Shown here: positions 4,259-32,000 of the stretch, one piece after another
How the letters are laid out: every line of letters starts with the position of its first letter
How positions within the stretch are numbered: position 1 is the stretch's first letter
Source of the DNA: Kiritimatiella glycovorans
GTDB lineage: Bacteria; Verrucomicrobiota; Kiritimatiellia; Kiritimatiellales; Kiritimatiellaceae
DNA length: 32,000 nucleotides
Assembly (NCBI RefSeq): GCF_001017655.1
Contig: NZ_CP010904.1
Location: forward strand, 1,860,001-1,892,000
Direction of reading: 5' to 3'
Made by a program: the position numbers and the translations under genes
The notes under the pieces: model-generated
What the model was told of the DNA's origin: nothing
What the model saw: the letters and a program-made list of their open reading frames with translations, nothing else
The model's database searches: none

Positions 4259-4335
4259 CGTCAGTCATCGGTCATTAGTCATGGGTCATCGGTACCCTCT
4301 TGCCATTGACTAATGACTAATGACCAATGACCATT
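4259..4335. repeat. inverted pair of TTGGTCA-type heptamer arrays
   Basis: cgtcagtcatcggtcattagtcatgggtcatcggt ... ccattgactaatgactaatgaccaatgaccatt. The right arm supplies the last codons (MVIGH) and the TAG stop of the 4317..4940 gene. Confidence 0.85.
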
Positions 4336-4940
4336 CCCTCCGGCCGGGTGCGACTGATGTAATCCAGCATCCGCTCAATGGTCGCGGCCTGTTCCGTGAC
4401 CTTGGCCCTCAATTCCCCAACCGAGAGATCCTCCGTGGGCACGGTGCTGTCCGGTGGCGCAATATCAGTCAGGGAAACGTCACAGCGCGGTCTGATCGCA
4501 CTGAGACCGCGATGCAGGCAGGCATGCGCGACCGTCCTGCCCAACGTGAGCTTCTGCTCGCAGGGATCCGTGAGCAATCCCCAGAGGATCCCCGGAAGCT
4601 CGTAAGATTCCGCCGCAAGGCTGTCGAGGCGCTCCCGCACCGTGTCCAACGATGCCCGGGACACCCACGCCACTTCTTCCCGGAACTTGTCGTCCAAGAG
4701 ATGGCTGACTTCCCGGCTGAACTCGTTTTCATGATGGGCGCCCTGGTGCGCTGCCTGCAGCAGCAAGCCCCGGTCTTCGGCCAGGCGCGACCCAAAGCAA
4801 GGGCACGCGCGAGGGATCACGGCGTTTTCGAGTTCATCCGTACTCAGGCCGATCCCGAGCATGGTGCAGATCGACGTGCAATCCAGCTTCCAGATAGGAG
4901 TGCGCTTGCTTGGTTTCTCGCTATTCTGTTCCATTTCCAT
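4317..4940 (-). CDS. hypothetical protein, short paralog of the N-terminal domain of the DUF2325 protein at 29011..30180
   Basis: 207 aa. Shares IWKLDCTSICTMLG and GILWGLLTDP with IWSLDCIAICTVLG and GIMWALLTDP in the larger protein. Confidence 0.6.
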   Translation of the reverse strand: MEMEQNSEKPSKRTPIWKLDCTSICTMLGIGLSTDELENAVIPRACPCFGSRLAEDRGLLLQAAHQGAHHENEFSREVSHLLDDKFREEVAWVSRASLDTVRERLDSLAAESYELPGILWGLLTDPCEQKLTLGRTVAHACLHRGLSAIRPRCDVSLTDIAPPDSTVPTEDLSVGELRAKVTEQAATIERMLDYISRTRPEGMVIGH

Positions 4941-4952
4941 GTCCAGTTATCC

Positions 4953-5012
4953 TTGGTCATTGGTCATTGGTCATTGGTCATTGGTCATTGGTCATCAGTC
5001 ATCGGTCATTGG
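4953..5012. repeat. tandem TTGGTCA heptamer array (about 8.5 units)
   Basis: ttggtca x6, then tcagtca, tcggtca, ttgg. Fills the 54-nt gap between the ICMT-like gene stop (4995) and the next gene start (4940). Confidence 0.9.
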
Positions 5013-5477
5013 CGACTTCCGCCGCGCGTATGGCAGAATCCGCGCCACGCGTTTCGAGTAGTCTCGGTACGCTTCGCCGTATTTCTCTGCAAGCCATGCC
5101 TCCTCGCCGGGCAGCACAAGCCGCAGCACGACATACATGATGAACGGGATCGCCAGGAGCAGCGGGTTGCGGAAGAACAGGACGAAGCCCGGCACGAGAA
5201 ACAGAATCCACGCCGCGTAGATCGGGTTGCGGCAGAGGGCGAAAACACCGCTCGTGCAGAGCGTCTCGGCCTGGTGCGCCTTTCTCAGCGTGATAGCGGA
5301 GATGAACCAGAACGGAATGCCGGCCAGCAGGATCGCGATGCCCGCGCCATAGAACCACCACGGTGAAATGGCTGTCACCACCAGCGATTCGCGGAACACG
5401 GCCGCGCAGACGACCACCGGCGCGGACGCCAGCAGGCTCCAGAGCAACCACTTGCCGCCTATTCCCCAAACCGTCAT
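4995..5477 (-). CDS. ICMT/PEMT-family membrane methyltransferase
   Basis: 160 aa, multi-pass. Motif region GVFALCRNPIYAAWILF...PGEEAWLAEKYGEAYRDY is typical of the isoprenylcysteine carboxyl / phospholipid methyltransferase family. Confidence 0.8.
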   Translation of the reverse strand: MTVWGIGGKWLLWSLLASAPVVVCAAVFRESLVVTAISPWWFYGAGIAILLAGIPFWFISAITLRKAHQAETLCTSGVFALCRNPIYAAWILFLVPGFVLFFRNPLLLAIPFIMYVVLRLVLPGEEAWLAEKYGEAYRDYSKRVARILPYARRKSPMTDD

Positions 5478-5490
5478 CTCTTTTCCTTCT

Positions 5491-5603
5491 GTCGGTCATA
5501 TGCGGCTGCGCCGCCGTCATTGGTCATTTGCGCCTGCGGCGCGTCATTGGTCATCAGTCAATGGTCAGTGGTCGGAACAACCAATGACTAATGACCAATG
5601 ACA
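5491..5603. repeat. inverted TTGGTCA heptamer arrays with embedded GC stem
   Basis: gtcattggtcatcagtcaatggtcagtggt-cggaacaa-ccaatgactaatgaccaatgac. Supplies VIGH plus the TAG stop of the ABC gene ending at 5588. Confidence 0.85.
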
Positions 5604-9698: not shown

Positions 9699-10207
9699 TC
9701 TTGATCCCTCCCTTGTTCAGGCGCATAGTCGCGTATACCGCGTTCCCGGGCCGTGTCGTCCGCCACTTCGTCCTGCCAGCCGGAACGGACGTTTTCGCGG
9801 AGGTCATAGCGGGCAATGAAGGGCTTGATGTCCAGGAGAGGCGTTCCATCGAGGATGTCGACATCCTCGACGTGCAGCGTGGTCCCTTCGACCGAGAGCA
9901 GGCGCACGACGCTGAATCCGATATGGTTGGGGCGGAACGGGGCGCGCGTGGCAAACACGCCGCGTTCCTGATCCTGCAGGTACGGACGGACCCGAAGCTT
10001 CACCTTGTCCGCGCGGTCAAAGCGATAAACCAGGTAAATATGAGAAAAACCTTCCAGGTCGAGGAGACCGTCTGCATACCTCTCCTCTACCGTGACCGTG
10101 CCGCGTATGCCCCTGGCGAAGACCGGCTGAATCGGCGTTTCTTTCGGTTTTCTGTGAGGGGAATGAATATGTCCGATGGGTTCTATGGTGTATCGTCCGG
10201 TGCTCAT
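9695..10207 (-). CDS. TsaA/TrmO (YaeB, UPF0066) family SAM-binding protein
   Basis: IGHIHSP...FSHIYLVYRFD...GVFATRAPFRPNHIGFSVVRL...DILDGTPLLDIKPF. ATG at 10207 with an ATGA overlap. Confidence 0.85.
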   Translation of the reverse strand: MSTGRYTIEPIGHIHSPHRKPKETPIQPVFARGIRGTVTVEERYADGLLDLEGFSHIYLVYRFDRADKVKLRVRPYLQDQERGVFATRAPFRPNHIGFSVVRLLSVEGTTLHVEDVDILDGTPLLDIKPFIARYDLRENVRSGWQDEVADDTARERGIRDYAPEQGRDQE

Positions 10208-10845
10208 TGTAATCTCCTTCCCCAGGTGCAAAGGGTTGGGGCTTCCGACGCGCCCCCATCATTGGGATTGTGCAAGATGATCTGCCGGACCTCGCTAAGC
10301 CCGGCCTTGGCAAAGCCGTCCGCGTACCGGGCTTTTGACCACATCTGCATGGGCACGCCCAGCCTTTCGGACCAGTCGTGGCTGGCGGCGTTTTCATGAT
10401 AGAGATCCACCAACACCCACAGCCAGCCGCCCGGTGCCAGCAGGCGCGCGGCATGGTCCAGCCCCTCCTGGATACTGGAGAAGTAGTAGAAGACTTCCAT
10501 GGAGAAAATGGCATCGAAGGTCAGCCCCTCACCCGGTTCCCAATTGATGAAATCGGCCGCTTCCAGTCGGACATTGCCCAGTCCGGCCGTGGTCTCTCTG
10601 GCCAGACGGATCATGCCCTCGCTCACGTCGATGCCCACGCATTGGCCGTCACGGTACTGGTTCGCGGCGATATGCCGCAGCCCCAGTCCGCACCCGCAGC
10701 CGACCTCCAGATAGTTCCCGTCGGAGTTCGGAATCATTTGCCATACCTGCCGGACGCGAGGCAGGTGGTTCTGCCACATTGGCCGTGCGCGGTCACCCGT
10801 TGCCCAGTGATCAAATAGTTGTGCTGCTGCATGACTATCGCTCAT
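10204..10845 (-). CDS. class I SAM-dependent methyltransferase (Methyltransf_11-like)
   Basis: SAM motif I YLEVGCGCGLG, then GIDVSEGMI and LLAPGGWLWV. Confidence 0.85.
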   Translation of the reverse strand: MSDSHAAAQLFDHWATGDRARPMWQNHLPRVRQVWQMIPNSDGNYLEVGCGCGLGLRHIAANQYRDGQCVGIDVSEGMIRLARETTAGLGNVRLEAADFINWEPGEGLTFDAIFSMEVFYYFSSIQEGLDHAARLLAPGGWLWVLVDLYHENAASHDWSERLGVPMQMWSKARYADGFAKAGLSEVRQIILHNPNDGGASEAPTLCTWGRRLQ

Positions 10846-11987: not shown

Positions 11988-12052
11988 CATGGTCAGTAGT
12001 CATCGGTCATCAGTCATTGGCGTGCCCGCCAGCTCCCAATGCCCAATGACCC
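11988..12052. repeat. inverted TTGGTCA-type heptamer arrays between two operons
   Basis: catggtcagtagtcatcggtcatcagtcattgg ... cccaatgcccaatgaccc, between the lipoprotein stop (12083) and the O-methyltransferase start (11962). Confidence 0.8.
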
Positions 12053-13614: not shown

Positions 13615-13691
13615 GATTCACCACGGAGACACGGAGACACAGAGAATTCGTCTCCTTGCTCCGCGCACTCTCCGTGCCTCTGTGGTTCAAC
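13615..13691. repeat. CACGGAG-type palindromic element (PAL-B)
   Basis: gattcaccacggagacacggagacacagag ... ctctccgtgcctctgtggttcaac, between the secretin stop and the pilT start. Confidence 0.85.
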
Positions 13692-15660: not shown

Positions 15661-15703
15661 ACTCATTCCCAATGCGTTATGCATGAACCGAGAAAGTCGG
15701 TTC

Positions 15704-15734
15704 AACCAATGACCAATGACTAATGACCAATGAC
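15704..15734. repeat. TGACCAA heptamer array
   Basis: aaccaatgaccaatgactaatgaccaatgac directly after the PilP-like gene stop. A GAACCGA-gaaag-TCGGTTC hairpin lies at 15685-15703. Confidence 0.85.
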
Positions 15735-15737
15735 TCT

Positions 15738-16223
15738 TCATCGGTATATCCTCACATCCTGCGGCCGGGTGCGCGGCGCGATTTCGATTTGACTGGCGGT
15801 CACCGATTTCACCAGCAGGTATAACTGCGCATCGGTCGCCCCCGCGGCGGCGCCGCCTCCGGCGGCACGGTCCACCTGAACGATGTCGCCTTCGCGGACG
15901 AAGTAGAGGTTCTTCACGCCGGGGATGGATATCGCACCCACTGGCTCTTTGCCGGCCACGGCCAGAATTCCCACTACGCGGATGCCTGGCGGAAGCGCGG
16001 CAGGTCCGGCGCTGACGAAGCCTTCGTCATCCGTCAGCCCCCGCATCGCAAACGGGTCGCCGGTCGGCATCCGGGGCGGAGGCGTAACCTCCGCCGCGGC
16101 GGTTCCCGCCGGCGCAGCCTTCTCTACCGCATTCGTCGCGACGCCAGCGGACACGCCGTCCTGCGCCATCGCCGGAACGGCAACGGCCCCCCATAGCCAC
16201 AGAAACCATATCGCTTGTTTCAT
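15738..16223 (-). CDS. PilP/GspC-like periplasmic pilus-assembly protein
   Basis: ATG at 16223 (MKQAIWFLWLW) with GGAG 7 nt upstream. Signal peptide, Ala/Pro linker, then the beta domain IRVVGILAVAGKEPVGAISIPG..YFVREGDIV. Confidence 0.5.
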   Translation of the reverse strand: MKQAIWFLWLWGAVAVPAMAQDGVSAGVATNAVEKAAPAGTAAAEVTPPPRMPTGDPFAMRGLTDDEGFVSAGPAALPPGIRVVGILAVAGKEPVGAISIPGVKNLYFVREGDIVQVDRAAGGGAAAGATDAQLYLLVKSVTASQIEIAPRTRPQDVRIYR

Positions 16224-16231
16224 CGTCTTCT

Positions 16232-16277
16232 CCAATCACTATTGACCAATCACCAATGACTAATGACCAATGACCAT
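16232..16277. repeat. TGACCAA heptamer array
   Basis: ccaatcactattgaccaatcaccaatgactaatgaccaatgaccatg, between the GspF/PilC stop (16281) and the PilP-like start. Confidence 0.85.
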
Positions 16278-16280
16278 GTC

Positions 16281-17516
16281 CTACCTCGCCGCCCGCGTGG
16301 CCGTCAGCACGGCCAGGTAGAACCCGAAATATACGAGCCCGACAAAGCCCCCCACCACAACGAATACGGCGGGTTCGACCAGTTTACTGAGCAACGTCAC
16401 ACGGCGGGTGAGCTGATCCTCCGAAAATCGGCCGACCTCCAGCAGACTCTCGTCCATGTGGCCGCCTTCCTCGCTGACGCTGACCAGCGTGTGCGCCATC
16501 GGCGTGAGCCGGTACAACTCCGTGGCCTCGATGCTCTTGCTCAAACTGGAACCGTCGCGCAGCATCGCGCGCACGCGCTCGAACTGCGCCGCGTAAATCC
16601 AATTGCTCATCGTGCCCCGCACGAGATCCACGGCCGCCAGCACGTCGAGGCCGCTGCCCAGCAGCGAACCCATCGTGGAACACCACATCGCGTTGGCATG
16701 GAAGCGCAACACACCGCCCAGCAGCGGAACCCGCAGCGCGATCGCGTCCACCCATTCGCCGGAACGCGCCGTGCGCCGCAAGGCCACCACAAGCACGACC
16801 AGCACCACCGGGGCGAGCAGGACATACAACCCGTACTCGGTCAGGAAACCGTCAAGCGCAATGACCATGCGCGTGGGCAGCGGCAATTCGACGCCTTTAC
16901 GGCTGGATTCGATGAACTTCATCACCGCCGGAAAGACCTTGCGCACCATGAACGCGCCAATACCCATGGCCGCCACGAGCACGACGGTGGGATAGCTGAA
17001 CGCCTGTAGAATCTGCTCGCGGGTCTTGCGCGCGCGCTCCTTGAGCCCCGCCGCATGCACGGCCATGGTGTCGAGCGTGCCGTTGGCCTCGCCCACGCCC
17101 AGCAAACCGATGGTCACCCGGTCGATCCCCGGCAGATTCTCGGCCAGGGCCTTGCTGAACGACTTGCCTTCGCGAATGCGTTCCGCCGTGTGCCGCAGCG
17201 CCTTTTGCATGGGCGGCGGGGCCGTGCGCGCCAGGGCGGTCAGCGCCGTGAGGATCGGCACGCCGGAACGCAGGAGCGAGCCGAGTTGCCGCAACACCAG
17301 CTCGACGCTGCTGGATCGGATCGTGATGCGGTCCAGCAGCCGTTCCAGGAACTTCGATTTCCCCGAACCCGTATGGCCGGCCGGCGCCGGGGCCAGCGAC
17401 AGCACGCTGGCGCCGTCGGCCCGCAGGCGTTCGGCCGCTTCGCGTTCCGATGCCGCCTCCAGCGTGCCTTCACGCCGTATGCCGCCCTGCAAAACGATGT
17501 AGCGGAATCCAGGCAT
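16281..17516 (-). CDS. type II secretion / type IV pilus platform protein (GspF/PilC family)
   Basis: 411 aa with two T2SSF-type repeats and three hydrophobic segments. The N-terminus MPGFRYIVLQGGIRREGTLEA is typical of the family. Confidence 0.9.
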   Translation of the reverse strand: MPGFRYIVLQGGIRREGTLEAASEREAAERLRADGASVLSLAPAPAGHTGSGKSKFLERLLDRITIRSSSVELVLRQLGSLLRSGVPILTALTALARTAPPPMQKALRHTAERIREGKSFSKALAENLPGIDRVTIGLLGVGEANGTLDTMAVHAAGLKERARKTREQILQAFSYPTVVLVAAMGIGAFMVRKVFPAVMKFIESSRKGVELPLPTRMVIALDGFLTEYGLYVLLAPVVLVVLVVALRRTARSGEWVDAIALRVPLLGGVLRFHANAMWCSTMGSLLGSGLDVLAAVDLVRGTMSNWIYAAQFERVRAMLRDGSSLSKSIEATELYRLTPMAHTLVSVSEEGGHMDESLLEVGRFSEDQLTRRVTLLSKLVEPAVFVVVGGFVGLVYFGFYLAVLTATRAAR

Positions 17517-18973
17517 CAGACGTCAACCTCCCCGACGAACGTCACCCGCCGCACTTCCTCCGGCGTGGTGAGCCCGGCCGCCACCTTGTCCGCCCCGTCC
17601 TGCGCCAGGGTCGGCAGCTTGCGCTGCTCGAATGCGAAATCGGCCATGCTATCCTCCGATGCATCGGCCACGACCAGGTCGCGCAGCGCGCGGTCCACGG
17701 GCGTCATTTCGTAGAGCCCGAGACGCCCCGCGTACCCGAGCTGGCCGCAGAACGCGCAACCGCGCGCGCGGGCAACCTGCGGCGGCGCGGCCGGATTCCA
17801 GCCGAACTCGGCGCATTGCGCTTCGGTTGCGGGCTCGCGAACGACGCAATGCGGACAGGGGCGCCGGACGAGCCGCTGGGCCACCACCAGCCGCAGGGTC
17901 GAGGCCGCCAGTTCCCGCGACACGCCGAGATTCAGCAGGCGCGTGATCACGGACACCGACGTGTTGGCGTGCAGCGTCGCCAGCACGATGTGCCCGGTAA
18001 GCGCGCTCTTGACCGCGATGTCCGCCGTTTCCGGGTCGCGGATTTCGCCGATCATGACGATATCCGGGTCATGCCGCAGCACGCTGCGCAGCGCCTTGGC
18101 GAACGACACCCGCTCGCCGTCGATCTGAATCTGGTTCACGCCTTTGAGCGGGATTTCGACCGGGTTCTCGATGGTCAGGATATGCTGCGTGCCCGGTTCG
18201 CGCAGATGGCGCAGCGCGGCGTACAGCGTCGTGGTCTTGCCGCTGCCGGTCGGCCCGGACAGCAGAATCACGCCGTAGGCCTGTTCCAGCGCGGCGCGCA
18301 TCATGCCGTAGTGCATCTCGCTCATGCCGAGCGCGTCCAGCCGGTCCAGCTCTTCCGATACGGCCGCCGTGGCCAGGATGCGCAGCGTGACCTTCTCGCC
18401 GTGCGTCGTGGGAATCACCGCCACGCGCATGGCAATGGACTCGCCCAGGCTGTCCATCACGATCTGGCCGTCCTGGGGCGCGCGCCGTTCGGAAATGTCC
18501 AACCGCGCCGCCACCTTCACCGCCGAGATCAAATCCGCCATGAAGGCGGGGGGATATTCGCTCACGACGCGCATCATGCCGTCCACGCGCATGCGCGCCA
18601 CGCCCATGCCTTCTTCGGGATCGAGATGGATGTCCGAACAGTGAATCTGGATCGCCCGGTTGACCAGCCGCTCCAGCGCGGCCAGCGCCGTCGGCGTCTC
18701 GTCGCCGGCCGCTCCGGCATAGTATCGCTCGATCGCGCGGGCAACCGCTTCCGGGCGCGAGGCGGTCACCGTCCGAACGCGCATGCCCAGCCGGCTTTCG
18801 AGTTCCATGACGCCGATGGGATCGTCGGGATTGGCCTGCGCCACGGTCAGCGTCTCGCCCTCCAGCGCCACCGGCAGCAGCCCGTAGCGCCGGGCCAGCC
18901 GCGCCGGGACCCGCGCAAGGGCCGCCTCCGCAATGGCGACCTTGGAGAGATCGACTGTCTGTTGCCCGCTCAT
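17516..18973 (-). CDS. GspE/PilB-family assembly ATPase
   Basis: True start MSGQQTVD at 18973 (ATGA overlap). T2SSE_N-like LARRYGLLPVALEG, Walker A GPTGSGKTTT, TIENPVEI, DPDIVMIGEIRD, TGHIVLATLHAN, tetracysteine CPHC...CAFC. Confidence 0.9.
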   Translation of the reverse strand: MSGQQTVDLSKVAIAEAALARVPARLARRYGLLPVALEGETLTVAQANPDDPIGVMELESRLGMRVRTVTASRPEAVARAIERYYAGAAGDETPTALAALERLVNRAIQIHCSDIHLDPEEGMGVARMRVDGMMRVVSEYPPAFMADLISAVKVAARLDISERRAPQDGQIVMDSLGESIAMRVAVIPTTHGEKVTLRILATAAVSEELDRLDALGMSEMHYGMMRAALEQAYGVILLSGPTGSGKTTTLYAALRHLREPGTQHILTIENPVEIPLKGVNQIQIDGERVSFAKALRSVLRHDPDIVMIGEIRDPETADIAVKSALTGHIVLATLHANTSVSVITRLLNLGVSRELAASTLRLVVAQRLVRRPCPHCVVREPATEAQCAEFGWNPAAPPQVARARGCAFCGQLGYAGRLGLYEMTPVDRALRDLVVADASEDSMADFAFEQRKLPTLAQDGADKVAAGLTTPEEVRRVTFVGEVDV

Positions 18974-19626
18974 GCGCCGCCCCCTCCGTACAGATGGAGC
19001 ACGAGCGTGAAGCGCAGCACCAGCGGCGGCGCGGTGGCGCCGCCGAACCCGTCGCTCTCCCTCAACAGTCCGATCGAGACATCGCGCAGTTCCCACAGGA
19101 GCGGCTCGCGGCGCGCCTCGTCGAGAAACCCGTAGATCGCGCCGAACCGCCCCGCCAGCTCGTACGCCGAGGCCACCGTCGGGACCGGAGCGTCGCCGGG
19201 GCTCTCCACCGCCGTATTCTTCAACACATGCAGACCGTGCCGGCCCGCGAGCGCCAGCAGCGCGGCATTCGCGTCCGCCTTGCCGGCGTCCAGCCGGTAG
19301 GCGCTGGTCTTTTCGACCTCCGCCAGCTCGGCGGCGCGGTCCTGGAGACTGCGTTGCAGGTTTTCGGCGCGCAGTTCTTCCTCCTGGATCTCCGGGTCGT
19401 CCGCCGGCGCGGGCACAGTCACGGGCACGCCCTTATCGGCCAGGGTCTTGCGCTCCGCGGCCAACTCGCGGTCCAGCGGGTCGAGGACTTTCGTCCGGGC
19501 GGCGATTACCACGCCCATGGCGAGCACGATGCCGATGATGATTCGGTGAAACGCCGTGAAGCGTTGCCAGAACGTCAGAAACTCGCGTTTCCACTGGCGC
19601 AGTGCGCGCCTTAATGCCCGCATCAT
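18970..19626 (-). CDS. PilO/GspM-like bitopic assembly protein
   Basis: ATG at 19626 (MMRALRR). Short basic N-terminus, one TM (IIIGIVLAMGVVIAA), a coiled coil and a C-terminal alpha/beta domain. The ORF-track N-terminus [10 protein letters not shown] is repeat-derived. Confidence 0.55.
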   Translation of the reverse strand: MMRALRRALRQWKREFLTFWQRFTAFHRIIIGIVLAMGVVIAARTKVLDPLDRELAAERKTLADKGVPVTVPAPADDPEIQEEELRAENLQRSLQDRAAELAEVEKTSAYRLDAGKADANAALLALAGRHGLHVLKNTAVESPGDAPVPTVASAYELAGRFGAIYGFLDEARREPLLWELRDVSIGLLRESDGFGGATAPPLVLRFTLVLHLYGGGGA

Positions 19627-19652
19627 GATGCCACTCCTGTTGGCTGAAAAGA

Positions 19653-19927
19653 ACTCACCACGGAGGCACGGAGGCACGGAGCCGACGCGCTGGGAATAGG
19701 CTGATTGTTCAAAGCTTCAGCAATGAACTCAGTGTCTCCGTGTCTCTGTGGTGAATTTGACGACGGGAGAGGGGGACTCACCACGGAGGCACGGAGGCAC
19801 GGAGCCGACGCGCTGGGAATAGGCTGATTGTTCAAAGCTTCAGCAATGAACTCAGTGTCTCCGTGTCTCTGTGGTGAACTTGACGACGGGAGAGGGGGAC
19901 TCACCACGGAGGCACGGAGGCACGGAG
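19653..19927. repeat. 123-bp tandem duplication of a PAL-B hairpin unit (2 full units plus a third left arm)
   Basis: Period of 123 bp confirmed by the 41-aa peptide periodicity in ORF 19623..20024. The units differ at one position by eye (gaatttga vs gaacttga). Confidence 0.9.
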
Positions 19928-19951
19928 AAGAGAAGACAAGAGAGGAGATTT

Positions 19952-20329
19952 TCATAGAACCATCCGTTTGATGCCATGCTTGAGCACGGGAACATTGAAA
20001 TTGATAAGCAACCCGACTCTGCATCCGGTCAGCTTCATGTAGGTGAGCAATTGCGCTTCGTGAATGGGCTCCAGTTCCTTGACGGCCTTCAGTTCCACAA
20101 CCACTTTCCCGTGCACGACGAGGTCCAGGCGCAAGTCCTCGCCGACTCGCTCACCCTTGTACAGCAGGGGCAATCTCACCTGGGTCTCGGACGCTACGCT
20201 GCGAAGGCGCAACTCGTGGCATAGGCTTCTTTCGTAAATCTCCTCGTACAGACCGGGACCCCAGTGCTTGTGCACCTCGATGGCCGCCCCGATGATCTGC
20301 TCCGTCAGCTCTGCTTCCACCATGCCCAT
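19952..20329 (-). CDS. GxxExxY family protein
   Basis: 125 aa. [29 protein letters not shown] contains G-L-Y-E-E-I-Y. Length and LLINF.. C-terminus are typical of the family. GGAG SD upstream of the ATG at 20329. Confidence 0.85.
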
Positions 20330-20360
20330 TCCATCTCCTCTTCCGCGCCCCCAAACACTG

Positions 20361-20389
20361 CTCCGTGCCTCCGTGTCTCCGTGGTGAGT
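20361..20389. repeat. PAL-B right arm pairing with the left arm at 19899-19927
   Basis: ctccgtgcctccgtgtctccgtggtgagt is the reverse complement of 19899-19927 at 28 of 29 positions. Confidence 0.85.
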
Positions 20390-20392
20390 TCT

Positions 20393-21763
20393 TCATTCCG
20401 GCACCACCGTATAGCGGAAGCGCTGCGCGTATTGGCCTTCGATCGTTTCCAAGCCGCCGAACTCGCGGCGCAGCCCCTCGCGCCGCCCCATCTCGCGCAG
20501 CGCCGCGTCGAGCTGGGTCAGTCCGTCCTGCCAGCGGGTGAGGCCCACGATTTCGAATCCGCCGCCCTCGCGCTGTTTGACCGATCCCAGGCACGAATAG
20601 GCCGGCATGTGCTGGGCCAGCGTCTCCAAGAGTGGCAGCAGTCCGTGCGGCAGACAGCGCCGCCCGGCCAGCATCTCCTTCTTCGTCACGATCGCGGTCT
20701 GGCGCTTCCGCAGCGCTTCGCTCTCGCCCGCCGCCTTCTTCCGCGCGCTCTCCAGCGTCTCCCACGCCTTGAGGTTGGCCTGCGCGCGGCACAGGTCGTG
20801 GTGCAGGGTCTGCCGCCGCCATCCCACCCAGACCAGCGAGAAGGCCAGAATGATGAAGAGCAGCACCGTCCCGTGCCGGTGCGGATCGCGCGGACGCGGC
20901 GGAAGCCCGATCCACGGACAGGCGTCTTCCACGCCACCGACGCGCCCGCCCGCAGTCCCGCGCAACGCCGCTTCCTCAAGCTCCGGCAGCGCGAGGTACT
21001 CGACATCCGCGCACGAGCCGATGTAGGGCGCAATTCGGCCTTGAAGCTGTTCGACCTCGCCCGGCAACACAACCGTCATGGGCACGGCATCGTGTACACT
21101 CAAGCGCTCCCGTGCGCGCTCCGCGCGTTCGCGCGCCGTCGGGTCCGATGCCGCGTCCAGCCCCAGCGGGATCGTCGCCGTCATGAACGGCTGGGGATCG
21201 TTGGCCGGCACGGCGTAGAAGCTCGTACGCTCGCGAACGATGAGCAGCCGCCGGTTCGGCGCGCGATGCGCATGCGCGGCCAGTATTGCCAGTTCGAGCG
21301 ACCCCGCGCCCTCGAACGCCACGCCCTCGCTTTCCGCGTCCGCCACGAAGCGATTCAGCCGTTCGATCTCGAACGACGCGGCCAGCAGCGCCTTGCGGTC
21401 GCCGCCCATCTCGTAAAGATGCGCCCGCGCCGCCGCCAGCCGATGCCCGGCCGCTTCCAGTCCCGCCTCGCCCTGCGCCTCGTAAGCCAGCGCGGTCTGC
21501 AATTCCTCGTCCGAGGCGTCCTCCGGCAATTCCGCCAGAAGCGCATGCACATCACCCGACAGCAGCACGCGCAAGCGCTTTGCCCGGGATTGGGCAATGA
21601 AATCCAGAATGGTCTTCGGCAACCCGCGCCCGGCGCGCGACGCCTCCTCCGCGCGATCGACGCACGTCCATTCGCCATGCCCGCGTTTCAGGGCATACGC
21701 CCGCCACGCCAGCCCGTCATGGACGGCGACCACCAGCGATTTGCTCTGTCCGGGTAATCTCAT
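20393..21763 (-). CDS. GspL-like protein (PilM-like cytoplasmic domain, TM, PilN-like periplasmic domain)
   Basis: 456 aa. About 300 cytoplasmic residues, TM VLLFIILAFSLVWVGW, a coiled coil, then a C-terminal alpha/beta domain. Sits upstream of the PilO/GspM-like gene. Assigned from architecture and context only. Confidence 0.6.
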   Translation of the reverse strand: MRLPGQSKSLVVAVHDGLAWRAYALKRGHGEWTCVDRAEEASRAGRGLPKTILDFIAQSRAKRLRVLLSGDVHALLAELPEDASDEELQTALAYEAQGEAGLEAAGHRLAAARAHLYEMGGDRKALLAASFEIERLNRFVADAESEGVAFEGAGSLELAILAAHAHRAPNRRLLIVRERTSFYAVPANDPQPFMTATIPLGLDAASDPTARERAERARERLSVHDAVPMTVVLPGEVEQLQGRIAPYIGSCADVEYLALPELEEAALRGTAGGRVGGVEDACPWIGLPPRPRDPHRHGTVLLFIILAFSLVWVGWRRQTLHHDLCRAQANLKAWETLESARKKAAGESEALRKRQTAIVTKKEMLAGRRCLPHGLLPLLETLAQHMPAYSCLGSVKQREGGGFEIVGLTRWQDGLTQLDAALREMGRREGLRREFGGLETIEGQYAQRFRYTVVPE

Positions 21764-21787
21764 GGCTGTTCTGACCTGTTATTCATG

Positions 21788-21861
21788 CTCACCACGGAGA
21801 CACGGAGGCACGGAGGAGAGATGAAGGGGATTCTCTCTGTGCCTCTGTGTCTCCGTGGTTG
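21788..21861. repeat. PAL-B palindromic element
   Basis: ctcaccacggagacacggaggcacggag - 19 nt - ctctgtgcctctgtgtctccgtggttg. Confidence 0.85.
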
Positions 21862-21886
21862 TTCTCTCTTCAACGGCATCATCATG

Positions 21887-22860
21887 CTACGGCTCCCTTT
21901 GGAGTTGCTCCGCTAGATAGAGGGTGATGAAGTTCGCGCCGGGCCGGATCTCAACGGATTGGGCTCCCGAATGCCACGCGTTATTCGTTGTGCCGCCGCC
22001 TGCGTTGAACCCGTACGCAAAGACCTGCCTGATCCCCGGAAACAGGTTCGAGAACACAACCGGGGTTCCTGCCGTGAGCGATTTTGACAGAGGCCCCGTT
22101 GTATTGGGAACGGCCAGGAGGACGTTTCCAGCAGTCAGAAACTCGTGCTGGGGCAATGCATACCAGTTTGTACCGGTCACGGACGGAGGTTCATTGCTGT
22201 TCGTCGACATACAGACATAGACATCCGCGTTGGTGCTGCACAGGTCGCCCGGAAAGTAGTTTGTGGTGGACGACCAGAGGGATGGCGCATTCGTGTTGGG
22301 GCTCATCCATGCGCAGAGAGCGAGTCGTGGGTTCCTGTGCAGAGCACGTACCTCCACCCGTAGCCAGCAGTTCGAAACGCTCGCAAAGGAGTATTCCACG
22401 TCATTGGTCAGCCAACCCGCACGGTCTTTCACTCTCGCCACGAGCTGTGTTCCGTTGATCAACTCGATCGGCTCGCCGAATCCGTCGTAGAAATTGGTGT
22501 CCGAAGCAACCACATAGGGTCCGGCCCAGCCCGCGTGTAAACCGGCAGTAATGGGCGCATAGCCAGGCACATCGAAACTATACGAAAGGTGCTGGAACGT
22601 GTTGGTGCTGGTAACGAGTTCACCCAGCGAATTCGGCAACCTCCCCATGTCGCGGACGAAGCGGCCGGCTTCCACGCCGTTGCCGACGACGGCTTCGCGG
22701 ATCAGGCGCATGCGCGTGACCGTTTCGTCGTAGCGGCCCCGGTTGGCGAGATCGCTGGCGCCAACCAGCATCATGCTCGCCAGGCCGGCCATCAGGGCCA
22801 GGACGACCACCAGCTCGATCAGCGTCATGCCCGCGCGCGGGTCTGACGCCGGTGCAGCAT
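21887..22860 (-). CDS. large prepilin-like (pseudopilin) protein with an apparently frameshifted leader
   Basis: G|MTLIELVVVLALMAGLASMML prepilin motif with its ATG at 22828. No conventional in-frame start exists: only GTG at 22942 or an ATG at 23119 inside repeats. A basic leader MLHRRQTRARA lies in another frame from 22860. Confidence 0.65.
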
Positions 22861-22864
22861 CGGC

Positions 22865-23116
22865 GGAAAGCGGACGCTCACCACGGAGGCCACGCCTCCG
22901 GCGTGGTAAACACGGACCTTGCCACGCCAGGGGCGTGGGCACGGAGAAGCGTTTGCTATTCCTCGCCCTCTGCGGCACTCCGTGCCTCGGTGTCTCCGTG
23001 GTGAGTTCTTTGGAAAGCGGACGCTCACCACGGAGGCACGGAAACACGGAGAAGACTCTGCGCTTCCGCTCTCTCTGCGGCCCTCCGTGCCTCGGTGTCT
23101 CTGTGGTGAGTTCTTT
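22865..23116. repeat. two tandem PAL-B units
   Basis: Both units start ggaaagcggacgctcaccacggagg and end ctccgtgcctcggtgtct(c/t)cgtggtgagttcttt. The first unit carries an extra roughly 40-bp internal insertion. Confidence 0.85.
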
Positions 23117-23141
23117 CATATCTTCTGCCCCTCCAACCGGA

Positions 23142-23949: not shown

Positions 23950-24019
23950 ATTTCACCACAGAGGCACGGAGGCACAGAGTTCAATCTCTGCTCCGTGTCT
24001 CCGCGCCTCCGTGGTGAAT
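23950..24019. repeat. PAL-B palindromic element
   Basis: atttcaccacagaggcacggaggcacagag - short loop - ctgctccgtgtctccgcgcctccgtggtgaat. Confidence 0.85.
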
Positions 24020-24059
24020 CTTCTCTTCAGTTGTTCTGTAGGACCTCTGGCAGTCCCTT

Positions 24060-24090
24060 CCAATGACTAATGACCAATGACTAATGACCA
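24060..24090. repeat. TGACCAA heptamer array
   Basis: ccaatgactaatgaccaatgactaatgaccag, ending 2 nt before the thioredoxin stop codon (24093). Confidence 0.85.
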
Positions 24091-24092
24091 GT

Positions 24093-24596
24093 TCAATGAT
24101 GCTCATGTCCGTGTCCATGGTGATCGTCCGTGTGGATGAAGGCGGCCGCCGCGATGTGAGGCCGCAGCCATTCCTTCAAAGCGTTGTCGTCCTGGTAGCC
24201 CAAGCGTCGATCAGTGGACTTGCCGCCGACATAGAGGCGCGTGTCCGGTATGGCCTCCACACCGCTTTCGCGGGCGAGAGCCCTGTGAGTGTCCGTGTCG
24301 ACCAACACAACACGCATGGTGCCCGGCAAGGCGTCGGCCAGGCGATGCAGATTCGGCTTCAACGCCCGGCAATGGCCACATGCTTCGCCCCCATAGCTCA
24401 CCAATACAAGGGGCGTACCGGTCAGCAGATCGTCCAGATTCGCGTCTTCGGCCAGCTCCACGACGTGCGCACTGGGAACCACCTCGCGCGCGGCCTTCTG
24501 CCGGTGCAACTGCACAACGACGATCACCGCGAAGGCGACCGCCGTGATCACGAGGATGCGGACGGCGCGGAACAGGATGCTTTTCTTCGTTGTCAT
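24093..24596 (-). CDS. membrane-anchored thioredoxin-fold protein with CGHC active site and His-rich tail
   Basis: N-terminal anchor ILVITAVAFAVIVVV with a basic cytoplasmic side. VLVSYGGEACGHCRALKP, cis-Pro region EAIPDT, C-terminal HTDDHHGHGHEHH. Confidence 0.8.
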   Translation of the reverse strand: MTTKKSILFRAVRILVITAVAFAVIVVVQLHRQKAAREVVPSAHVVELAEDANLDDLLTGTPLVLVSYGGEACGHCRALKPNLHRLADALPGTMRVVLVDTDTHRALARESGVEAIPDTRLYVGGKSTDRRLGYQDDNALKEWLRPHIAAAAFIHTDDHHGHGHEHH

Positions 24597-26644: not shown

Positions 26645-26664
26645 TCTGTTCTTTCCTCTGTTTA

Positions 26665-26740
26665 CCGATGACCAATGACCAATGACCAATCACTAATGAC
26701 CCATGACGCGCCGCAGGCGCAAATGACCAATGACCAATCA
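26665..26740. repeat. TGACCAA heptamer arrays flanking a small GC stem
   Basis: ccgatgaccaatgaccaatgaccaatcactaatgacccatgac-gcgccgcaggcgc-aaatgaccaatgaccaatca. Confidence 0.85.
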
Positions 26741-26745
26741 GGAGA

Positions 26746-28869: not shown

Positions 28870-29006
28870 GTCATTGGTCATTGGCCATTGGTCATTTGCG
28901 GGCTTCGCCCACAGTCATCAGTCATTGGCAGCCAACGGAAAGCAATGACCCGCAACCAATGACTAATGACCATTGACTACTGACCAATGACCAATGACTA
29001 ATGACC
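28870..29006. repeat. long inverted TTGGTCA heptamer arrays
   Basis: gtcattggtcattggccattggtcatttgcggg ... cccgcaaccaatgactaatgaccattgactactgaccaatgaccaatgactaatgacc, ending 5 nt before the DUF2325 gene stop. Confidence 0.85.
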
Positions 29007-29010
29007 TCCC

Positions 29011-30180
29011 CTACGCCGCCCCCATCAGCACCGCTTCCAGCGCCGTCGGACTCGTCTCTCGCAGAGCCATGAATTGTCTTCCCGTCTTCTTGCACAGTCC
29101 CTTTACGACCTTCAGTGCGGAGTGGCTGTTGACGCGGGTGATGAAGATCACCAGGTCCGCCTGACACACCGCCGTCCTCAACCTGTGACAGCCGCCTTGA
29201 CAGTCGCCGTTATGGAAGAGGAACTGGCCGCCCATGGCTTCGACCACGCGGCGGTAATGCGGCTCCAAGCGATCCAGACCACCGATTACCGCAACGTGCA
29301 TGGCATCGAGCGGACAGGGATCTGCTCCCGAGGCGGCGCAATGGGCCAGTTCGGTTTCGCAGGCTGGAACGGCGCATGGCGGCGGCGGCTCCTCGCCGAA
29401 CGTGGGCGCGCCGGACTTGTCGGACAAGTCCAACAGATCGGACTCGGCCGGTGCTCCCGCAGACGTCATGACCGCAGGTTGCTGCCGCACTTCCTCCAAC
29501 TCATGCTCCAGAATGCGGATGCGCCTGAGCAGTGCCGCCTCGCGGTCCGGTTGCGCCTCCAGTTCGGCGATGCGCTGCTCGTGACGGCGGCAAGCGGCCT
29601 TGAGATCGTCCGATTCGCGCTCAGTTTGCCGGAGTCGCTCCCGGAGCGCGTCGGCCGCCGCCTTCTGCTTCGCCAAACTTGCCCGCGCCTTGTTCTCCGC
29701 CATCTCCGCGGCTTTCGCCTGTTCCGCTTCCCGCAGCGATTCCAGAGAGCGTTGACGGGAATCGCGGAAAGCACCGTAGGCGATCTGGTGAACAAGATAC
29801 ACGCCCAGGTGTTGGAACGACTCGCGGGGATCGGTGAGCAACGCCCACATGATTCCTGCCGGCGTCTGCTTGATCCAGTCTTCGAGCTGCGCCAGGATCC
29901 GATCCTCCGATCCCTCCTCCGTAGCCCTGACGATTTGGATGATCCGCGTGTACCGTTCGTTGAGGAGTTTGGTCAGGCGCTTCGGCAGCAGGCCGCCTTG
30001 CTCGTGACAGGCCTTGTGCAGCAGGTAGAAGCCGAAAGACGAATCAACACGCTTGCCCTGCTTGGAGAGATTGAACTTGCGGCAGAGCTTGCCCACGTTC
30101 TTTGCATCCAGAGCGAAGCCGAGGACCGTGCAGATGGCAATACAGTCCAGCGACCAGATGTGTTGATTGTCGTTGCTCAT
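29011..30180 (-). CDS. DUF2325 domain protein with N-terminal Cys-containing domain and central coiled coil
   Basis: C-terminus VAVIGGLDRLEPHYRRVV...ADLVIFITRVNSHSALKVVKGLCKKTGRQF matches my recollection of DUF2325. The centre is about 90 aa of E/A/R/K heptad-like sequence. The N-domain is paralogous to 4317..4940. Confidence 0.75.
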   Translation of the reverse strand: MSNDNQHIWSLDCIAICTVLGFALDAKNVGKLCRKFNLSKQGKRVDSSFGFYLLHKACHEQGGLLPKRLTKLLNERYTRIIQIVRATEEGSEDRILAQLEDWIKQTPAGIMWALLTDPRESFQHLGVYLVHQIAYGAFRDSRQRSLESLREAEQAKAAEMAENKARASLAKQKAAADALRERLRQTERESDDLKAACRRHEQRIAELEAQPDREAALLRRIRILEHELEEVRQQPAVMTSAGAPAESDLLDLSDKSGAPTFGEEPPPPCAVPACETELAHCAASGADPCPLDAMHVAVIGGLDRLEPHYRRVVEAMGGQFLFHNGDCQGGCHRLRTAVCQADLVIFITRVNSHSALKVVKGLCKKTGRQFMALRETSPTALEAVLMGAA

Positions 30181-31247: not shown

Positions 31248-31276
31248 CTCTGACTTCCTTTCTCGCTAGCTAGTTA

Positions 31277-31303
31277 TTTGTCATTGGTCATTAGTCATTC
31301 GTG
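31277..31303. repeat. TTGGTCA heptamer array in the flavodoxin 5' region
   Basis: tttgtcattggtcattagtcattcgtg, 30 nt upstream of the flavodoxin ATG. Confidence 0.8.
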
Positions 31304-31335
31304 CATCCATCTGACGAACAGGCTTTTTCCAACGT

Positions 31336-31642
31336 GGGTGGCTGATTGACTCAAATGACGGATGAACGGACGGGGAGCTTCACCACGGAGGCACGGAGAC
31401 ACAGAGAAGACTCCTCCGTTCCGTGCTCTCTTCCGGCCCAACCGTTGCGCGGATTTGCCACGGGGCGCGGTGGATCCTTGGGGCGGAAGTCTGTTTCCCA
31501 TCTGCCGCACGCCGTGGCAAATCCGCGCAACACACGGCGGGGAGGCGGCAGAGGAAGCTCCGCTGGCCCGCTCCCATCCGGAACTCCGTGCCTCCGTGTC
31601 TCCGTGGTGAATCCTCGCATCGCTTGAGTCAATCAGCCACCC
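31336..31642. mobile_element. MITE-like nested palindrome (outer 19-bp IR, PAL-B arms, inner 20-bp IR)
   Basis: gggtggctgattgactcaa (31336-31354) pairs with ttgagtcaatcagccaccc (31624-31642). PAL-B arms at 31378-31406 and 31583-31612. gttgcgcggatttgccacgg (31444-31463) pairs with ccgtggcaaatccgcgcaac (31512-31531). No target-site duplication was seen. Confidence 0.45.
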
Positions 31643-31844: not shown

Positions 31845-32000
31845 GGAAAGCGACACTCACCACGGAGGCACGGAAGCACGGAGAAGGCGCCGATCCTCCG
31901 TGCCCTCTTCCGGTTCAACCGTTGCGCGGAAAATACGCGCACCACTCGCCAGGGAGGAAAGGGGATAACCCGCAGTCTCTCTCCTGCCCGACACTCCGTG
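31845..32000. repeat. PAL-B element of the long-loop subfamily, truncated by the window end
   Basis: ggaaagcgacactcaccacggaggcacggaagcacggag. The loop shares cctccgtgccctcttccggttcaaccgttgcgcgga with the 31336-31642 element. The right arm begins at 31991. Confidence 0.7.

Follow-up and report, generated by a model that had tools for sequence, protein, structure and literature searches.

We analyzed a 32,000-nt stretch of the Kiritimatiella glycovorans genome (NCBI RefSeq assembly GCF_001017655.1, contig NZ_CP010904.1, positions 1,860,001 to 1,892,000 of the forward strand), referred to below as the window, with regard to a small GxxExxY gene enclosed by two inverted sequence arms at an operon junction. 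The operon is type II secretion or type IV pilus-like: profile searches identified T2SSE, T2SSF and pseudopilin genes, its relatives also carry a secretin, and one orthologue in the relatives' operons carries the source name 'PilN'. Between the end of the upstream open reading frame (ORF) at 20393 and the ATG of the downstream gene at 19626 we found a gap of 766 nt, occupied by repeats of a hairpin family that the initial annotation of this stretch had called PAL-B. The same annotation had labelled the flanking genes 'GspL-like' and 'PilO-like', but neither had a Pfam or NCBIfam match and these labels reflect operon position only. Features of the junction are listed below.

20393–21763, minus strand: upstream flanking gene, 456 aa; no Pfam match; C-terminal codons and stop remodelled by the insertion
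19627–20392, minus strand: whole insert, 766 nt; one gene-bearing unit (hereafter the cassette) and two gene-less hairpin units
20358–20393, minus strand: cassette 5' arm (gene orientation), from the inverted-repeat search; AAGAAC-TCACCAC-GGAGACAC-GGAGGCAC-GGAG
20330–20357, minus strand: cassette 5' untranslated region (UTR); GAGGAG Shine-Dalgarno; paired to the 3' UTR in the predicted RNA structure
19952–20329, minus strand: GxxExxY gene, 125 aa; PF13366 and TIGR04256 profile matches
19899–19930, minus strand: cassette 3' arm (gene orientation), beginning 24 nt past the stop; the 'third left arm' (plus strand) of the initial annotation
19776–19898: gene-less hairpin unit 2; arm 19776–19804, 46-nt loop, arm 19851–19880, spacer of about 20 nt
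19653–19775: gene-less hairpin unit 1; arm 19653–19681, 46-nt loop, arm 19728–19757, spacer
18970–19626, minus strand: downstream flanking gene, 218 aa; no Pfam match; ancestral Shine-Dalgarno and ATGATG start retained

Read in gene orientation, the gap consisted of arm TCACCACGGAGACACGGAGGCACGGAG (20389–20361), a 31-nt leader, the ORF (20329–19952), a 24-nt trailer, arm CTCCGTGCCTCCGTGCCTCCGTGGTGAGT (19927–19899) and the two 123-nt units. The stop codon of the upstream gene (TGA, 20393–20395) abutted the outer edge of the cassette 5' arm, and the GAGGAG Shine-Dalgarno lay 6–7 nt 5' of the GxxExxY ATG. The coordinates given in the initial annotation for the gap and its two near-identical units were correct: units 19653–19775 and 19776–19898 were identical at 122 of 123 positions. 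Likewise, the arm at 19899–19927, which was identical to the left arms of both tandem units, was complementary to that at 20361–20389 at 28 of 29 positions, as had been stated. This inverted repeat extended to 32 nt (19899–19930 and 20358–20389, 94%), and the outermost pair in the gap was 34 nt long (19649–19682 and 20360–20393, 97%). The short units and the gene unit shared a common polarity, TCACCAC...GAG, then loop or gene, then CTC...GTGGTGA. Since arms elsewhere in the window formed left-loop-right hairpins and the cassette arms had the same polarity, the gene sits in the loop position, in agreement with the first description of the locus. The insert had a GC content of 0.573 versus 0.687 in the flanking genes, and the cassette gene differed in composition from its neighbours, with a GC content of 0.57 versus 0.69 and a GC content at third codon positions of 0.75 versus 0.83–0.86.

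The arm core CACGGAGGCACGGAG (up to 3 mismatches) occurred 46 times in the window, against an expectation of 2.2 and no more than 7 in any of 100 shuffles. All arms in the window belonged to left-loop-right hairpins with loops of 11–177 nt, amounting to about 12 units in 32 kb, and a tblastn search detected one GxxExxY copy only. In the K. glycovorans copy of the cassette, the predicted RNA fold had a minimum free energy of –212.7 kcal/mol (z = –3.75), with the arms paired and the Shine-Dalgarno occluded by the stem. Conserved pairing between 5' and 3' UTRs beyond the arms was considered and rejected as a general feature: it was present in K. glycovorans, but the mean z across 27 cassettes was –0.76. 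No promoter-like or terminator-like sites beyond chance were found in 19500–20600. Besides, no Rfam family reached its gathering score in the window, and an Rfam E-value scan of 19400–20600 returned sub-threshold miRNA-precursor families only, which we read as generic hairpin matches.

Comparison with three related Kiritimatiellia genomes (L081, L083 and L084) revealed the state of this junction without the insert. Their orthologues of the 456-aa protein were 78%, 73% and 64% identical to that of K. glycovorans, respectively, and in all three the homologues of the 456-aa and 218-aa genes overlapped by ATGA, with no insert and no spacer. A search for empty sites of this kind had been suggested in the initial annotation, and no relative was found with the gene at this junction in the absence of repeats. 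Aligned with the empty sites, K. glycovorans retained the old Shine-Dalgarno and ATGATG at one side and had a new TGA stop at the other. The 766-nt segment is, relative to these genomes, an insertion into a formerly overlapping stop/start junction. Syntenic 9-kb stretches of the relatives contained no arms, versus 13 arm matches in the K. glycovorans stretch (window 15–25 kb). The next operon junction upstream (21764–21886) was also an insertion relative to these genomes, in this case of a gene-less hairpin.

The protein encoded by the cassette matched TIGR04256 at full length (151.2 bits, cut-off 35; E = 1.3e-44; model positions 1–116 of 116), and its sole Pfam match was PF13366 (PDDEXK_3; 148.1 bits, cut-off 22; E = 1.7e-43); the gene and its Shine-Dalgarno had been recognized correctly from the letters. 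Its GxxExxY motif is G26-L-Y-E29-E-I-Y32. G26, E29 and Y32 were invariant in one alignment (A3); in another (A4), E29 and Y32 were invariant and G26 nearly so (at least 90%). Residues E39, D69, E79-x-K81 and Q93-xxx-Y97 (Q93-L-L-T-Y97) were invariant or nearly so and correspond to the RecB/Cas4-type motif set; D69, E79 and K81 were invariant in 91 sequences, and Q93 and Y97 were invariant as well. Most homologues are 123 aa long and align from residue 3, so that translation may in fact begin at the second ATG (20323).

An AlphaFold2 (AF2) model built from the 91-sequence alignment had a predicted local distance difference test (pLDDT) score of 93.6 and a helix-helix-strands-helix-strand topology, whereas a model from a shallow alignment (78–92% identity) reached a pLDDT of only 50 and was set aside. 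The best Foldseek matches in PDB were Cas4 SSO0001 (4ic1, probability 0.99, TM 0.54), lambda exonuclease, MGME1 and a restriction-endonuclease-like protein. Scores were modest (best E of 6e-3, TM up to 0.56), but the top matches were all PD-(D/E)XK enzymes, in line with the nuclease-like fold that had been suspected; weaker matches included tRNA-splicing endonucleases, Hjc and a homing endonuclease. On the basis of motifs and model, the GxxExxY protein is apparently a minimal RecB/Cas4-like PD-(D/E)XK nuclease that appears catalytically intact. Because it contains only two cysteines (C37 and C103), it has no Cas4-type four-cysteine iron-sulfur cluster. Searches of PDB by sequence gave only spurious YebT matches with the single protein and none with a 25-sequence profile. 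Defence-system models (PADLOC) produced only a weak Cas4-profile match (E = 0.0014) and nothing convincing, PHROG phage families gave no match, and no cas or recombination genes flanked the GxxExxY gene in the window.

The family is very large, with 20,857 clusters at 50% identity (E up to 1e-3), and occurs in bacteria, in metagenome-assembled genomes (MAGs) labelled archaeal and in viral contigs. Homologues from different phyla were 64–96% identical at codon positions 1 and 2 and 32–56% identical at position 3; for eight homologues at 75–89% amino-acid identity, identity at positions 1 and 2 was 77–96%. For example, the copies at 1853–2206 of an Acidobacteriota MAG locus (L050) and at 10001–10357 of an Elusimicrobia MAG locus (L064) were 93% identical at positions 1 and 2 and 42% at position 3. 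Conservation of positions 1 and 2 with position 3 near saturation indicates old divergence and strong purifying selection, and for the same reason recent horizontal transfer was rejected as the source of the 80–93% protein identity seen across phyla. Many of the top family matches were two-domain tandem fusions of 220–295 aa (P0259–P0282 and others), which suggests that the working unit is a dimer.

We then asked how general the arrangement is by scanning one genome per GTDB species, which yielded 80 loci with GxxExxY relatives at 55–89% identity. These loci came from Verrucomicrobiota, Kiritimatiellota, Lentisphaerota, Acidobacteriota, Planctomycetota, Chloroflexota, Desulfobacterota, Gammaproteobacteria, Nitrospirota, Elusimicrobiota, Leptospirales and an ANME-1 MAG. 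For each, the highest-scoring ungapped inverted repeat shared by the 300-nt flanks on the two sides of the gene was compared with those at 581 control positions of the same geometry. Of 74 testable loci, 63 scored above the controls' 99th percentile (12.2), with medians of 19 observed and 8 in controls. The repeats in these 63 loci were the same motif, [T]TCACCAC-RGAG-RCAC-RGAG-RCAC-RGAG upstream and its complement downstream, so that flanking by PAL-B arms, which the initial annotation had named as the decisive point for other GxxExxY genes, extends far beyond K. glycovorans. Each arm is about 27–40 nt long and is built from a TCACCAC cap followed by three 8-nt repeats (CACRGAGR).

Across 1.1 Mb, loop lengths were bimodal, with 68 units below 150 nt and 50 units of 300–800 nt. 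When arms were located by regular expression, the 300–800-nt loops contained a GxxExxY ORF with matching polarity, apart from two units; of these, the one at L049 (3127–3536) looks like a GC-rich false arm match. Five extra GxxExxY copies were found in the flanks of the loci, again inside long loops, and several cassettes can lie within 20 kb (L015, L046 and L075). Many cassettes are tightly packed: the ATG can directly follow one arm, and the stop can be 0–10 nt from the other. A general cassette system with varied cargo was rejected, because 300–800-nt loops held GxxExxY and no other gene family. Longer apparent loops in a sample seeded with arms (see below) were also rejected as cassettes, since they contained either ordinary genes bordered by two complete hairpins or unrelated nested repeats. 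In one contig (L190, 836–1520), an arm pair 637 nt apart encloses an ORF that reads as a VapB-like antitoxin (MPVDVTVDDKLVEDARKLG...) and a nested palindrome; this pair is more likely to represent two arms of independent origin than a cassette. The initial annotation had also mentioned a link between GxxExxY genes and intervening sequences, which found no counterpart here, as five conserved sequence motifs of 16S/23S rRNA were absent from all 80 loci.

Arms were considerably better conserved than neutral positions of the genes they enclose. In 49 cassettes, mean identity to the K. glycovorans copy was 78% for the left arm and 77% for the right arm, compared with 39% at third codon positions of identical amino acids and about 51% in the 5' UTR. 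In one locus (L178), the protein was 57% identical and third positions 22% identical, and the arms were 100% and 93% identical to those of K. glycovorans. As judged from these alignments, the arms are constrained as sequence, beyond pairing alone. Lineage variants of the repeat (CGCAGAG, CACAAAG, CACCAAG and CACGAAG) changed in concert in both arms. More distant homologues (38–41% identity) on IMG/VR viral contigs were flanked by inverted repeats of 47–66 nt whose sequence was unrelated to the K. glycovorans arms, and which combined a GC clamp with three tandem repeats, each of about 12 nt; hairpins of this type lacking a gene lay nearby. That the architecture persists while its sequence switches with the protein clade would point to the encoded protein as the reader of the arms.

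Several individual contigs add to this picture of arm types. The triple-repeat arms of five viral contigs (L208, L209, L210, L211 and L212) were AT-rich with a GC clamp, GGGCGCTTCGCTTGAAA followed by three TTTTACTTAAAA-like repeats; the left arm was duplicated in L211, and two gene-less hairpins lay downstream of the gene in L209. The only viral locus lacking an inverted-repeat signal was L207 (2900–3528; homologue 38% identical, contig GC 0.40), and the roughly 90-nt repeat in its flanks (AAATAAATCAGCGTAAATC.GCGAGATCCG.GGGAAATAAAAAA...CCCGCAGAT...) was present as direct rather than inverted copies. In soil metagenome contigs (L116, L125, L134, L189 and L200), other tandem-oligomer 'arms' were present beside PAL-B, for example ATCAGTGT, CGATTCCGG, CACGGATT and GCGATGGAT, each in three copies. 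These other arm families may be partners of other small-protein clades.

A metagenome scan seeded with the arm sequence rather than the protein returned 120 loci (643 kb) with 149 arms. Of these arms, 86 belonged to left-loop-right hairpins, mostly with loops below 150 nt, and 51 were solo; a few had the reverse polarity or formed same-orientation arrays. Complete cassettes numbered only two, with one further partial cassette, in this sample, in which gene-less hairpins and solo arms far outnumbered gene-bearing units. Short hairpins were located between co-oriented genes in 45 cases, convergent genes in 16 and divergent genes in 2. Different genomes carried the cassette at unrelated locations, typically pressed up against a stop codon: the upstream gene was co-oriented in 41 of 48, and in 25 of 48 no more than 15 nt separated its stop codon from the arm core, with the stop sometimes falling inside the arm edge (TAA-CCAC, TGA-TTCACCAC). 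One contig (L089, 2524–2700) contained at least six same-orientation tandem arms with a period of about 35 nt, mixing CACAGAG, CACGAAG, CACCAAG and CGCAAAG repeats. In three others (L097 at about 2401, L123 at about 1491 and L167 at about 5624), solo arms in the CTC...GTGGTGA orientation lay directly 5' of start codons, that of L123 being 7 nt before the ATG of a gene read as aspartokinase-like (MIVMKFGGTSV...); this placement hints at a 5'-UTR role or an insertion preference.

The feature at the K. glycovorans junction is best read as the gene-bearing form of a widespread hairpin-repeat family, most copies of which have a short loop and rare copies of which hold one GxxExxY gene. We further consider it reasonably probable that a minimal PD-(D/E)XK nuclease and inverted arms with three tandem recognition repeats act as partners, in a relationship that is selfish or once was. 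Under this proposal, the nuclease, probably as a dimer, would recognize the three-repeat arms of its own family and cut at or near them, possibly when they are folded as a hairpin or cruciform, and through this cutting both the cassette and the gene-less copies would be spread or maintained. Candidate routes are break-induced copying with the arms as homology, action in trans similar to that of REPIN/RAYT systems, and action on single-stranded hairpins at replication forks. The rare gene-bearing units would supply the protein, with gene-less hairpins and solo arms serving as substrates or remaining as relics, and the promoterless cassette gene would probably be expressed by read-through from the co-oriented upstream gene.

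Several observations weigh against such a partnership. The unit encodes no transposase, integrase or ligase, and we know of no lone nuclease capable of strand transfer. At the two junctions that were compared with empty sites, neither a target-site duplication nor a precise nucleotide boundary was found, although the relatives are too diverged (64–78% protein identity) for this comparison to be sharp. About one third of arms are solo and some form same-orientation arrays, for which a pure hairpin model fails; the L089 array, in particular, is not accounted for by a hairpin-only model. The two two-domain variants that were examined, in L205 (413–1294) and L213 (1502–2335), were flanked or preceded by hairpins of opposite polarity, with ACCAC ends facing the loop, rather than enclosed in a loop. 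Loops of the short units showed no similarity to the cassette interior, and hence these units are apparently not simple deletion derivatives of the cassette. The cassette-like insertion proposed in the initial annotation was supported by the empty sites; as to descent, the short units may have arisen from cassettes by deletion, or the gene may have entered a hairpin. Finally, saturated synonymous sites together with a very conserved protein imply long-term retention, to be expected under a host-useful or domesticated function no less than under a selfish one.

Such a host function is the essence of one alternative, in which the nuclease is beneficial or domesticated (repair, defence or toxin-like control), the arms are operators, and the units are moved passively by host recombination. 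Strong purifying selection on an anciently diverged protein, the size of the family (20,857 clusters at 50% identity), its presence on viral contigs and the weak PADLOC Cas4-profile match (E = 0.0014) are all compatible with it, as is the stem-occluded Shine-Dalgarno of the K. glycovorans copy, which would limit expression. Yet the unit contains no immunity, antitoxin or sensor partner gene, and neither a convincing defence-system model nor a PHROG family matched. Operators moved passively also leave unexplained why the unit here behaves as an insertion and why gene-less copies are in such great excess, and they sit poorly with unrelated positions across genomes, wedged against stop codons, and with several copies within 20 kb (L015, L046 and L075). 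We regard this alternative as rather improbable. Chance juxtaposition, i.e., a small gene that happens to lie between two of many intergenic hairpins, might be suggested by the density of hairpins in the window (about 12 units in 32 kb). However, the gene is bordered by two half-units (a left arm and a right arm) rather than by complete hairpins; 63 of 74 independent loci show the same arrangement, the control 99th percentile being 12.2, and such loops contained no gene of any other family. The flank test and the cargo scan exclude chance juxtaposition, whose probability we consider negligible.

A further alternative places the element at the level of RNA. In Coxiella, the intervening sequence (IVS) of 23S rRNA is 428–444 nt long with a 28-bp terminal stem, contains one small ORF and is cut by RNase III (PMC4990558). 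By analogy, the arms would form a transcript stem of about 27–34 bp that is processed by RNase III or stabilizes mRNA, with the nuclease ORF as a passenger. The cassette matches the Coxiella IVS in size and layout, its arms pair in the predicted RNA fold, and it has no promoter of its own, with 41 of 48 cassettes following a co-oriented upstream gene. Of the short hairpins, 45 lie between co-oriented and 16 between convergent genes, divergent neighbours being rare (2). In addition, arm mismatches of gene-bearing units were G.U-compatible in the sense strand in 55 cases versus 28 in the antisense strand (p = 0.004), but no such strand bias was seen for short hairpins in operons (47 vs 55). A stem maintained for pairing only would be expected to drift by compensatory change, whereas the arms are about 78% conserved across phyla in which synonymous sites are saturated. 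Nor would such a stem account for the recurrence of a three-tandem-repeat build with unrelated sequence in a distant protein clade, for the one third of arms that are solo and unable to form a stem, or for GxxExxY being the only cargo found. An RNA-level element is thus unlikely in our opinion, and a partnership between nuclease and arms remains the explanation that we favor.

In addition to the junction described above, the window contained the following repeats.

13618–13691: gene-less hairpin of the same family
21789–21861: gene-less hairpin of the same family; lies at the adjacent operon junction, itself an insertion relative to the related genomes
22865–23114: two hairpin units (22865–23009 and 23025–23114)
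23953–24020: gene-less hairpin of the same family, 11-nt loop
27860–27938: gene-less hairpin of the same family, 25-nt loop
30250–30328: gene-less hairpin of the same family
31380–31613: hairpin unit with a 177-nt loop containing a nested unrelated palindrome (about 31446–31537); no GxxExxY remnant by tblastn
1475–1531, 4264–4352, 4950–5023, 5502–5602, 11992–12031, 15692–15748: arrays of 7-nt units
16218–16288, 24046–24102, 26651–26741, 28870–29012, 31273–31312: arrays of 7-nt units, continued

The left arm of unit 22865–23009 was broken by a small palindrome (CCACGCC...GGCGTGG), which suggests that repeat families insert into one another. Another unit, which runs off the end of the window (31857–32000), had a left arm and about 45 nt of loop that were 82% identical to unit 31380–31613. 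The arrays of 7-nt units (CCAATGA / GTCATTG) represent a second, unrelated repeat class, probably the 'PAL-A' of the initial annotation, and were present at many gene junctions, often directly 5' of start codons; some form hairpins (e.g., 5543–5602). They resemble PAL-B arms in that both are tandem repeats of short oligomers. Two neighbouring ORFs deserve correction. The pseudopilin ORF on the minus strand (21887–23119) as called begins inside hairpins (translation ...TTETPRHGG...), and its N-terminal methylation motif at residues 95–111 places the true start much further downstream. Similarly, the T2SSE ORF (17516–19096, minus strand) as listed overlaps the end of the 218-aa gene (18970–19626) by about 127 nt; since the relatives' T2SSE is 485 aa long with a 4-nt overlap, the real start is probably further downstream. 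For annotation in general, units of this family split translationally coupled operons, supply new stops and create spurious ORF extensions, as in ORF 21887–23119.

We found no literature on the arm sequences, and GxxExxY, PDDEXK_3 or PF13366 was mentioned only in passing in the searchable literature. The arm-gene-arm element is without a describing paper, an Rfam family or a sequence-detectable solved structure. GxxExxY/PF13366 is a very large family with no assigned function, for which the link to the arms gives a first testable function, and the candidate nucleic-acid substrate is easily obtained as a synthetic oligonucleotide. If the nuclease does act on the arms, this would explain widespread intergenic hairpins in Verrucomicrobiota, Kiritimatiellota, Acidobacteriota, Planctomycetota, Chloroflexota and other phyla, would provide a non-transposase route to repeat proliferation alongside REPIN/RAYT, and might yield a compact sequence- or structure-specific nuclease.

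Among known systems, several share parts of this organization. Nucleases of the Cas4, RecB and lambda-exonuclease family have the same motif set (D, ExK, QxxxY), and Cas4 SSO0001 and lambda exonuclease were the best structural matches, but these nucleases are about 200 aa or longer, compared with about 125 aa here. The GxxExxY protein also differs from them in having no four-cysteine iron-sulfur cluster, no CRISPR or recombination-gene context in the window and no sequence-level PDB match. PD-(D/E)XK homing endonucleases, whether free-standing or intron-borne (e.g., I-Bth0305I, I-Ssp6803I), are likewise small nucleases, and a comparable spread by cutting of a cognate site and repair copying can be envisaged; I-Bth0305I was a weak structural match (Foldseek rank 24, E = 0.2), a likeness at the level of fold only. 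Unlike the putative dispersed repeat family targeted here, however, homing endonuclease genes reside in introns, inteins or phage genes and have a single allelic target. The IVSs of rRNA in Coxiella and Leptospira, whose ORF encodes an S23p four-helix bundle, are alike in size (about 430–490 nt), in a stem of about 28 bp and in carrying one small ORF, and are regarded as selfish and horizontally acquired (PMC4990558). They occupy helix 25 or 45 in 23S rRNA, from which RNase III excises them, whereas units described here lie between protein-coding genes, encode a different ORF family and have sequence-conserved triple-repeat arms.

Integron cassettes also carry a promoterless single ORF and an imperfect palindrome able to fold, and they occur in tandem arrays with read-through expression. 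However, each has one attC at one end and depends on an integrase, in contrast to the arms at both ends, TCACCAC(RGAGRCAC)n, and the constant cargo seen here; no attC core sites (RYYYAAC / GTTRRRY) and no adjacent integrase were found, the flanks being secretion/pilus genes. MITEs and their parent insertion sequences (IS) are similar with regard to terminal inverted repeats, many short non-coding copies with few coding ones, and insertion polymorphism between relatives. They differ in that no DDE, HUH, serine or tyrosine recombinase is encoded here, the only ORF being the PD-(D/E)XK nuclease. Besides, no target-site duplication was evident at two junctions, within the resolution that the diverged relatives allow, and the short copies are apparently not internal-deletion derivatives.

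The closest parallel is the REPIN/RAYT system (PMC3116915, PMC3337134), in which abundant extragenic repeats occur as singlets, inverted hairpin pairs and clusters, mostly downstream of genes, and in which a rare gene is flanked by inverted repeat copies while gene-less copies are far more numerous, as was found here. RAYT, however, is an HUH/Y1 (IS200/IS605-type) enzyme, whereas the protein here is of the PD-(D/E)XK type with PF13366 as its only Pfam match. In addition, each REP is a small palindrome, in contrast to the non-palindromic triple 8-mers of the arms, and RAYTs are typically single-copy and vertically inherited, whereas the gene unit here is an insertion and can be multicopy. Because the enzyme expected of REPIN/RAYT, IS/MITE, integron cassettes and rRNA IVSs was in each case not the one encoded here, a new class of mobile element stays a live possibility. 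We entertain, tentatively and with less than even confidence, that such a class exists in prokaryotes and viruses, in which a nuclease rather than a transposase or recombinase reads triple-repeat arms and propagates itself together with a gene-less population. A nuclease element of this kind would parallel REPIN-RAYT with a different enzymatic basis and a much broader phylogenetic range, covering more than 10 phyla and 20,857 clusters at 50% identity.

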